Virus record (IMG/VR): IMGVR_UViG_2563366955_000016
DNA: 41,253 nt
Origin: a virus
Lineage: Duplodnaviria; Heunggongvirae; Uroviricota; Caudoviricetes
Reading direction: 5' to 3' (one strand)
The notes under the pieces: model-generated
What the model was told of the DNA's origin: nothing
The model's database searches: none
Seen by the model: only the letters and a program-made list of their open reading frames with translations
Shown: piece after piece, positions 26,014-26,323 of the stretch
How positions within the stretch are numbered: the stretch's first letter is position 1
Layout of the letters: every line of letters starts with the position of its first letter
Program-made: the position numbers and the translations under genes

Positions 26014-26088
26014 TGGAGCGGGCAGCGGGAATCGAACCCGCATCATCAGCTTGGAAGGCTGAGGTAATAGCCATTATACGATGCCCGC
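26014..26088 (-). tRNA. tRNA-Gly (anticodon UCC)
   Basis: Hand-folded cloverleaf: acceptor GCGGGCA/TGCCCGC, anticodon loop CTTCCAA, T-loop TTCGATT, encoded CCA; resembles E. coli glyT. Confidence 0.8.
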
Positions 26089-26091
26089 ATA

Positions 26092-26167
26092 TGGTGCCGA
26101 CTACCGGAATCGAACTGGTGACCTACTGATTACAAGTCAGTTGCTCTACCTACTGAGCTAAGTCGGC
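26092..26167 (-). tRNA. tRNA-Thr (anticodon UGU)
   Basis: Hand-folded cloverleaf: acceptor GCCGACT/AGTCGGC, anticodon stem ACTGA/TCAGT, loop CTTGTAA, T-loop TTCGATT, encoded CCA; one T-stem mismatch. Confidence 0.7.
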
Positions 26168-26169
26168 AC

Positions 26170-26246
26170 TGGACCGCCACCGGGGACTCGAACCTCGCAC
26201 ACTCAACTTAAAGGGTTGACGCTCTTTCCTGATGAGCTAGTGGCGG
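26170..26246 (-). tRNA. tRNA-like gene with non-canonical anticodon loop CCUUUAA (UUU at positions 34-36, C at 33); isotype uncertain
   Basis: Perfect 7-bp acceptor (CCGCCAC/GTGGCGG) with C1:G72, D-arm, perfect anticodon stem TCAAC/GTTGA, T-loop TTCGAGT, encoded CCA; C33 and a T-stem A:C mismatch are atypical. Confidence 0.5.
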
Positions 26247-26247
26247 C

Positions 26248-26323
26248 TGGTGGCCCTTGCTGGATTTGAACCAGCGACCTGGCGATTATGAGTCGCTCGC
26301 TCTCACCACTGAGCTAAAGGGCC
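26248..26323 (-). tRNA. tRNA with CAU anticodon, ileX-like (tRNA-Ile2, lysidine) or elongator Met
   Basis: Hand-folded cloverleaf: GGCCCTT acceptor, anticodon loop CTCATAA, T-loop TTCAAAT, encoded CCA; close to the E. coli ileX sequence as I recall it. Confidence 0.75.

Follow-up and report, generated by a model that had tools for sequence, protein, structure and literature searches.

Four tRNA genes between Q and the lysis cassette

We analysed an array of four transfer RNA (tRNA) genes in a lambdoid prophage of the Caudoviricetes, IMG/VR record IMGVR_UViG_2563366955_000016, whose whole stretch of 41,253 nucleotides (nt) is referred to here as the window. ARAGORN predicts exactly four tRNA genes in the window, adjoining one another at 26014-26323 and all on the minus strand, with the anticodons CAU, UUU, UGU and UCC in the order of transcription; we number them tRNA1 to tRNA4 in that order. 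An earlier reading of the DNA letters without database searches (hereafter the sequence-only reading) had proposed a four-tRNA array at this place without stating its strand, and ARAGORN and the Rfam tRNA model RF00005 place it at exactly the same coordinates. The anticodons folded by hand at that time (CAU, a CCUUUAA loop, UGU and UCC) were all returned by the software as well, leaving nothing to revise on this point; the "third gene" singled out in that reading is third by plus-strand coordinates and second in the transcript, that is, tRNA2. Since the four genes score 44.4-73.8 bits against an RF00005 gathering score of 29 bits (E-values from 5e-12 to 2e-6), the array is not a chance occurrence. 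The genes are separated by spacers of 1, 2 and 3 nt, and each of the four encodes its CCA end. Cloverleaves were mostly not recovered when single tRNAs were folded by minimum free energy (MFE), a usual outcome with unmodified tRNA sequences, and such folds were not used as evidence.

The array is flanked upstream by the late antiterminator gene Q and downstream by a P21-type class II holin gene, the first gene of the lysis cassette (Table 1). No stx gene is present among the genes downstream of the array, and the matches to PF06323 and PF04971 agree with the earlier placement of the array between Q and the lysis cassette, free of toxin genes.

Table 1. Positions of the tRNA array, its putative regulatory elements and other features of the window.
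Feature	Positions	Strand	Basis and remarks
tRNA1, ileZ, tRNA-Ile2 type, anticodon CAU	26248-26323	minus	ARAGORN Met(CAU); Rfam 72.5 bits
tRNA2, argN family, anticodon UUU	26170-26246	minus	ARAGORN Lys(UUU); Rfam 44.4 bits
tRNA3, thrU copy, Thr(UGU)	26092-26167	minus	ARAGORN; Rfam 73.8 bits
tRNA4, glyT copy, Gly(UCC)	26014-26088	minus	ARAGORN; Rfam 64.9 bits
Late antiterminator Q	26518-27207	minus	PF06323, E 7.8e-90
pR'-like late promoter (predicted)	26506-26534	minus	TTGCAA-17-TATATT; consensus scan, 9/12 matches
tR'-like intrinsic terminator	26424-26454	minus	10-bp GC-rich hairpin AAAACCCGCCCACAAGCGGGTTTT (hairpin at 26431-26454), then T run
Sigma-70 promoter of the array	26333-26361	minus	TTGCAA-17-TATTAT, then GC-rich discriminator CCTGCGCCC
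Structured non-coding spacer, tRNA-Gly to holin start, 292 nt	25722-26013	minus	three long hairpins
P21-type class II holin	25506-25721	minus	PF04971, E 1.4e-35
IS009 RNA	44-242	minus	Rfam, 219 bits
HNH endonuclease gene	22667-23017	minus	
GNAT acetyltransferase open reading frame, 161 aa	23470-23955	plus	PF00583, E 4e-6
hok-like open reading frame	29738-29950		
sok antitoxin RNA	29888-30062	minus	Rfam
IS5-family transposase, 338 aa	30518-31864	plus	NF033581, E 2e-109
DicF small RNA	36828-36879	plus	Rfam

Three of the four genes are readily assigned. tRNA1 is identical in 76 of 76 positions to ileZ of the Shiga toxin (Stx) phage Stx2a_F349, and RefSeq/PGAP labels it tRNA-Ile. It carries the bacterial Ile2 determinants A73, C4:G69, C29:G41, A37, A38 and the CAU anticodon (determinants as listed in PMC9976931), and to judge from these positions its CAU would presumably be lysidine-modified to read AUA. 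tRNA3 and tRNA4 are 100% identical to chromosomal thrU and glyT, respectively, and in related loci tRNA4 shows a compensatory change from C6:G66 to U6:A66. On the chromosome, in thousands of genomes, the match to this part of the array splits in two pieces with a tRNA-Tyr gene between them. Compared with the chromosomal thrU-tyrU-glyT-thrT operon, the array therefore holds the same Thr(UGU) and Gly(UCC) genes, at 100% identity, but is devoid of tyrU, thrT and the chromosomal spacers, sets Thr and Gly 3 nt apart and stands behind a phage promoter. The sequence-only reading had already noted that the gene order does not match this chromosomal cluster, to which we can add that the two shared genes are exact copies.

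Such complete identity of the Thr and Gly genes to chromosomal ones could be taken to indicate that the array was left behind by tRNA-targeted integration, or picked up by chance from the chromosome, and does not function as an operon. We consider this very improbable and rejected it on position and architecture: the four genes are full length and located mid-prophage, between Q and the holin gene, rather than at an attachment site, tyrU and the chromosomal spacers are cleanly missing, the array is preceded by a conserved promoter, and the same architecture is found in hundreds of prophages with diverged flanks.

Two putative promoters and an intrinsic terminator precede the array. The pR'-like promoter, just past the Q stop codon, is predicted from its motif, and its position fits the late regulatory region of lambdoid phages; the hairpin of the tR'-like terminator lies between this promoter and the array. 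Closest to the genes is the array's own sigma-70 promoter, the -10 element of which ends 9 nt ahead of the ileZ 5' end. In a sample of 202 IMG/VR loci anchored on ileZ, with 45 distinct haplotypes upstream of it, 43 haplotypes contain TATTAT and 40 have it exactly 9 nt from ileZ, with TTGNNN at the 17-nt spacing and the sequence around these motifs strongly diverged. We propose that the array would be transcribed from this promoter, leading to expression in lysogens, with a GC-rich discriminator resembling those of stable-RNA promoters, and that during lytic growth Q-modified polymerase starting at pR' would read through tR' into the array. RNase P and 3' exonuclease trimming would be enough to mature the transcript, because the spacers are only 1-3 nt long and CCA is encoded in all four genes.

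Downstream of the array, the 292-nt spacer is predicted to be strongly structured, with an MFE of -95.2 kcal/mol compared to -71.9 +/- 4.9 for shuffled sequences (z = -4.7). Its hairpins include a perfect 13-bp stem at about 25885-25955, a terminator-like CCGC-TTTT-GCGG-T6 element lies just ahead of the holin gene, and the first 60 nt of the spacer are conserved in most four-gene arrays. Rfam returned no match in 25900-26013, the part of the spacer that was searched (E-value mode). The spacer could be an operon terminator, a processing site or a small RNA (sRNA).

tRNA2 and the argN slot

The remaining gene, tRNA2, departs from the canonical tRNA pattern at several positions. Its anticodon loop reads CCUUUAA (C32 C33 U34 U35 U36 A37 A38), and it has C1:G72, U73, A20, C16, an A51.C63 mismatch in the T stem and an acceptor stem that is fully Watson-Crick paired, in agreement with the C33, C1:G72, perfect acceptor stem and encoded CCA reported for it earlier. 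Aligned end to end, tRNA2 is 84.4% identical to argN of the Stx phages and 61% identical to host lysT; the host tRNA-Lys sequence was verified in all 5,426 complete Escherichia coli genomes that we examined, with a median of six copies. An identity of 61%, compared to 84-86% for genes of the argN family, indicates that tRNA2 does not share a common descent with host tRNA-Lys.

Comparison with argN separates what tRNA2 inherited from what it acquired. C1:G72, U73, A20, C16 and the whole T arm, including A51.C63, were inherited from argN, and the C1:G72 end that had been pointed out as an oddity, although present, is thus not a new defect. New in tRNA2 are U33C, C35U and G36U in the loop, the compensatory change of G30:C40 to A30:U40, the change of U27:G43 to U27:A43 and the replacement of two acceptor wobble pairs by Watson-Crick pairs; the G3:C70 and A3:U70 differences seen in this slot are likewise compensatory. 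Apart from C33, the anticodon loop now equals that of host tRNA-Lys (CxUUUAA). The two alternatives raised by the sequence-only reading, degeneration or altered decoding, were the right ones to weigh, since the UCG anticodon of argN has become UUU here.

In E. coli, arginine identity depends on A20, C35, U or G at position 36 and A or G at position 73, and lysine identity on the anticodon together with A73 (PMC9976931). tRNA2 retains A20 but has U35 and U73, and it possesses U34, U35 and U36 of a tRNA-Lys but has U73 in place of A73 and C33 in place of U33. Judged by these positions, tRNA2 belongs to the argN family by descent and is not an Arg tRNA by anticodon. Without C35, arginine identity would be lost, and as lysine identity is specified mainly by U34-U35-U36, tRNA2, if charged, would likely receive lysine. 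In RefSeq/PGAP the identical sequence is labelled tRNA-Lys and bears no pseudogene flag, and the Rfam score of tRNA2 is close to that of a 933W-type argN (43.0 bits). The window allele does not score as a pseudogene, an outcome that had been envisaged for it: at 44.4 bits, its stems are intact apart from the inherited A51.C63.

The array, counted where at least 80% of it is present, occurs in 602 of the 5,426 genomes (about 11%), where PGAP annotates it as Ile/Lys/Thr/Gly. Its composition, previously described as unusual, does differ from the ileZ-argN-argO cluster of Stx phages, but it is common. Three sequenced phages carry the array, one record omitting tRNA2 and another calling it Lys. A scan of GTDB species representatives with a 20-mer from the T arm and acceptor located the array in E. 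coli and Shigella flexneri alone, two further matches to the 20-mer, in a Thorarchaeota and a Pirellulales genome, being presumably due to chance. In the library of papers searched, nothing on this array was found under ileZ/argN/argO or prophage Lys/Thr/Gly arrays.

To follow the second position of the array, hereafter slot 2, we relied on the ileZ-anchored sample. An initial sample had been picked via the T arm of tRNA2 itself, which biases tests of constraint; with the sampling repeated from ileZ, the T arm of the UUU lineage again showed no variation. Most frequent among the 202 loci is the order Met-Lys-Thr-Gly (89 loci), followed by Met-Arg(UCG)-Arg(UCU) (60), Met and Arg(UCU) with an unrecognisable argN relic between them (26), Met-Lys-Arg(UCU), in which the Lys gene has a 1-nt deletion in the D stem (9), and Met-Arg(UCU)-Thr-Gly (6). 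Smaller classes include the 5' half of argN fused to the 3' half of argO (three loci) and a tRNA2-type gene with its anticodon arm deleted (four loci). The remnant in the argN slot (CCGCCATTAGCTTATCAGGAAGAGCAGACGACACGATAACAGGG...) is found in L133, L139, L143, L147 and others, about 26 of the 202 loci, all in Stx-type arrays. Three degenerate patterns in which the D loop and the anticodon stem were held fixed gave no match to further anticodons on the same scaffold; these patterns were too strict, as they missed the Arg(UCU) gene that the ileZ-anchored sample later revealed. When we looked for a version of the UUU gene with U33, the sole match (in L128) was an unrelated tRNA-Lys of an AT-rich phage.

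The closest comparison is provided by a sister array, ileZ-Arg(UCU)-Thr-Gly (L160, L180, L183 and L212), which has the same four slots and the same A30:U40 stem in slot 2. Its slot-2 gene is a canonical tRNA-Arg(UCU) with U33, C35, A51:U63 and G73 that scores 56.4 bits, whereas slot 2 of the window has C33, U35, A51.C63 and U73 and scores 44.4 bits. Between the two lineages, end-to-end identity is 85.7% in slot 2, 96.1% in ileZ, 97.4% in Thr and 100% in Gly. The sister Arg(UCU) gene is likely the ancestor or closest relative of the UUU gene, as far as these alignments can tell. On the same comparisons, slot 2 is a position of the argN family that evolves fast, is often in decay and has decayed repeatedly, its three anticodon states being UCG, UCU and UUU.

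Supply, decay or defence

Since the 1990s, the supply of rare-codon tRNAs has been the explanation given for tRNA genes located after Q in lambdoid and Stx phages. Given the gene identities, homologies, architecture and conserved promoter motif described above, the array is a genuine and common variant, already annotated automatically, of a known phage cargo locus, and we read it as a four-gene tRNA operon that a Rac/Qin-like lambdoid prophage carries as cargo in its late region, serving as a tRNA supply or buffering module in which tRNA2 is anticodon-shifted; we assign this reading a probability of roughly 0.6. Host Ile2, Thr(UGU) and Gly(UCC) are minor species with one or two gene copies each, and the ileZ, thrU and glyT copies of the array would add to these low-copy tRNAs. 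A supply or buffering role is suggested because the codons AUA, ACA/ACG and GGA/GGG appear about 1.5-1.9 times commoner in the prophage genes than in K-12: counting the late genes of the prophage, we obtained 13.5 per 1000 for ACA (K-12 about 7), 23.4 for ACG (about 14), 12.1 for GGA (about 8), 17.8 for GGG (about 11) and 6.4 for AUA (about 4.4), the K-12 values being approximate. According to this reading, tRNA2 would have arisen in the argN slot through an anticodon shift from UCG or UCU to UUU, together with U33C and the compensatory A30:U40, and would be, if active at all, an inefficient decoder of Lys codons (AAA/AAG) on an Arg scaffold.

Several observations weigh against the supply reading, and the K-12 values in the codon comparison are approximate. 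AGA and AGG are even more enriched than the codons listed, yet the array is without argO, and supply cannot explain why tRNA2 is kept, because the host has a median of six tRNA-Lys(UUU) copies. tRNA2 is also without the near-universal U33 and without the Lys determinant A73, and has the A51.C63 mismatch in its T stem, while slot 2 as a whole diverges 3-5 times faster than its neighbours. Of 116 UUU-type copies, 17 carry U8C and 14 a deletion in the D stem; these alleles (31/116, about 27%) give no Rfam hit, falling below the gathering score, and the U8C allele is left unannotated by PGAP. Covariation among 14 slot-2 alleles was not significant compared to shuffled alignments (122/500), and we claim no selection from it.

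Many of the same observations would be expected if tRNA2 were a decaying relic of argN or Arg(UCU), unused in translation, with ileZ, thrU and glyT as the working array. The gene would then persist only because it is wedged 1-2 nt from working neighbours in a compact, horizontally spreading operon. Consistent with this, tRNA2 has lost arginine identity (C35U) and U33, combines C33, U73 and A51.C63, and has the lowest Rfam score in the array; a better-formed Arg(UCU) gene occupies this slot in the sister array; about a quarter of UUU-type copies (31/116) lie below the gathering score; the anticodon arm is deleted in four loci and argN is reduced to an unrecognisable remnant in about 26 Stx-type arrays; slot 2 is 85.7% identical between lineages in which ileZ, Thr and Gly are 96-100% identical; and one annotated phage record skips tRNA2 altogether. 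However, the window allele keeps every stem, and its G30:C40 to A30:U40 change, as well as the G3:C70 / A3:U70 differences, is compensatory. C33 and UUU are invariant in all 116 copies, in a loop that otherwise matches that of host tRNA-Lys, and the nucleotide diversity (pi) of tRNA2, at 0.017, is near that of Gly (0.012) and Thr (0.009), within a range of 0.005-0.017 for the four genes and compared to 0.23-0.30 for the flanks, where it stems in part from mosaic replacement. A 933W argN, generally treated as a gene, scores no better than tRNA2. Across the 14 slot-2 alleles, the cloverleaf is 94.2% paired compared to 29-53% for slid controls, and the alleles include one double compensatory change and nine wobble-preserving changes. 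Weighing both sides, we regard decay to an unused relic as possible but on balance unlikely, and the odds that tRNA2 has some activity, as estimated from its sequence and variation, as roughly even. If tRNA2 is a relic, the array is an ordinary variant of a known cargo locus and the tRNA-Lys label given by annotation pipelines is an over-call.

Work published in 2023-2025 has shown that virulent phages survive tRNA-cleaving defences using their own tRNAs, and this suggests another interpretation, namely that the array, and tRNA2 above all, serves counter-defence. A Lys(UUU) tRNA built on an Arg scaffold would go unrecognised by the nucleases PARIS AriB, PrrC and P2-OLD, and tRNA-Thr(UGU), the other prime target, would be restocked through the dosage of the extra thrU copy. 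The anticodons concerned are shared with the targets of these systems, UUU with those of AriB and PrrC, and UGU with those of AriB and P2-OLD. AriB cuts U36AAUC/A41 (the slash marking the cut); cleavage is abolished by U39A and impaired by A41C and U16C (PMC12409363). In tRNA2, positions 36-41 are UAAGUU (G39 U40 U41) and position 16 is C, differences from the host tRNA at sites of importance to AriB. P2-OLD blocks lambdoid phages as the effector of P2-lambda interference; it prefers tRNA-ThrU and needs paired CNG motifs at positions 28-30 and 40-42 (PMC12445682). Both motifs are present in argN (CAG/CUG), and the A30:U40 change in tRNA2 removes both of them, along with C40. Other lambdoid phages have an Asn(GUU)-Thr(UGU) pair at this late-region site, where codon usage offers no rationale for Asn (PMC3636060), and the Thr gene of SfI has an altered anticodon stem. 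In one system, dosage can be enough for rescue when a host-identical tRNA is expressed from a strong promoter, and rescue from PrrC170 is achieved by phage tRNA-Lys but not by host tRNA-Lys (PMC11555353). An added Lys gene, moreover, is what supply leaves unexplained in a host with about six copies.

Against counter-defence, the case built from these positions is entirely inferential, and the Thr copy, being host-identical, keeps both the CNG motifs and the AriB site and so is not resistant. The traits that would let tRNA2 escape follow from its Arg ancestry and need not be adaptive, C33 and U73 probably lower its translational fitness, and the signs of decay listed above apply here equally. 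No tRNA-targeting nuclease or trigger was found by PADLOC or NCBIfam among the 10 window open reading frames scanned. Overall, a counter-defence role for the array is doubtful, and we are slightly more doubtful of the narrower proposal that a spare Arg tRNA in the argN slot was turned into a lysine decoder whose body would be invisible to the tRNA-Lys-directed nucleases AriB, PrrC and P2-OLD.

What the analysis adds to a locus of known type is the recognition of the odd gene as an anticodon shift within the argN family, with a canonical Arg(UCU) sister gene, a conserved dedicated promoter and a testable link to tRNA-targeting defences. The array pairs a tRNA with a Lys(UUU) anticodon on a non-Lys scaffold with an extra Thr(UGU), both prime targets of AriB; P2-OLD, the classic anti-lambda system, likewise has Thr(UGU) as its prime target. 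Should tRNA2 be charged with lysine and withstand cleavage, it would represent a widespread, overlooked counter-defence tRNA in temperate phages and their lysogens, as well as a natural example of identity switching by anticodon shift.

The surrounding prophage and related systems

Elsewhere in the window, the Rac/Qin-like lambdoid prophage has a RecE-like exonuclease, a DicA-like repressor, DicF and hok/sok, and an integrase at its right end. DUF968, RusA and Q lie upstream of the array on the minus strand, and the holin gene is followed by DUF1327, lysozyme and Rz. An IS5 insertion, with its transposase gene, sits in the early/nin region and suggests that the prophage may be defective. The IS009 RNA, the sok antitoxin RNA beside a hok-like open reading frame and the DicF sRNA are typical cargo of Qin/Rac-type prophages. 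The HNH endonuclease gene is found directly upstream of a P27-type small terminase gene and then the large terminase gene, in the usual HNH-terminase packaging arrangement. Between Rz and these genes, on the strand opposite to its neighbours, is an open reading frame for a GNAT acetyltransferase, where the otherwise similar prophage of E. coli strain 4/4 (NZ_CP023826) carries a gene of the YfbU family. Acetylation of aminoacyl-tRNAs is known for some GNAT toxins; this open reading frame had no NCBIfam or PADLOC match, and no partner antitoxin was found for it.

Among known systems, the nearest is the ileZ-argN-argO cluster of Stx phages (933W type, Stx2a_F349, AP012530), which occupies the same site after Q, pR' and tR'. 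The sequence-only reading had equated the two sites, and they are indeed homologous: tRNA1 is 100% identical to ileZ, the odd gene, at 84%, is an argN homologue with an identical T arm, and the TATTAT promoter 9 nt ahead of ileZ is general to ileZ-led arrays. The window shares with this cluster the position between Q and the lysis genes and ileZ as the first gene, but argN itself is not second and argO is not third: argN has UCG and U33 where tRNA2 has UUU and C33, and argO is replaced by the thrU and glyT copies. In addition, no stx follows the array here, the 292-nt structured spacer leading instead to the holin gene.

Two further features of the Stx-type loci were noted in passing. The 933W-type argN (L002 2632-2708, Stx2a_F349; also L108) has a G3.U70 wobble, U73 and A51.C63 at 43 bits, as well as paired CNG motifs in its anticodon stem. 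G3.U70 is the major alanine identity determinant, and the identity and activity of this gene themselves seem worth checking. The sRNA STnc100 (100-175 bits) is found in all six Stx-type loci inspected (L140, L148, L108, L133, L132 and L089), usually a few hundred nt downstream of the tRNA array, and AgvB sRNA in L108 and L140; neither is present in the window, and the segment following the tRNA genes is therefore another variable cargo slot.

The Asn(GUU)-Thr(UGU) pair of phages 21, SfI, Sf6, ST64T and PS3 is located at the same post-Q site and likewise includes a Thr(UGU) gene (PMC3636060). The genes of the two loci are nevertheless unrelated, the SfI Thr being divergent with an altered anticodon stem, whereas the Thr gene of our array is an exact host copy. 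Lastly, the tRNA-Lys of phage T5 resembles tRNA2 in having the same anticodon as the nuclease target while differing from the host tRNA at positions 39-41 and 16 (PMC12409363). T5 tRNA-Lys is experimentally resistant, whereas tRNA2 is derived from an Arg tRNA, is without U33 and A73, and belongs to a temperate phage.

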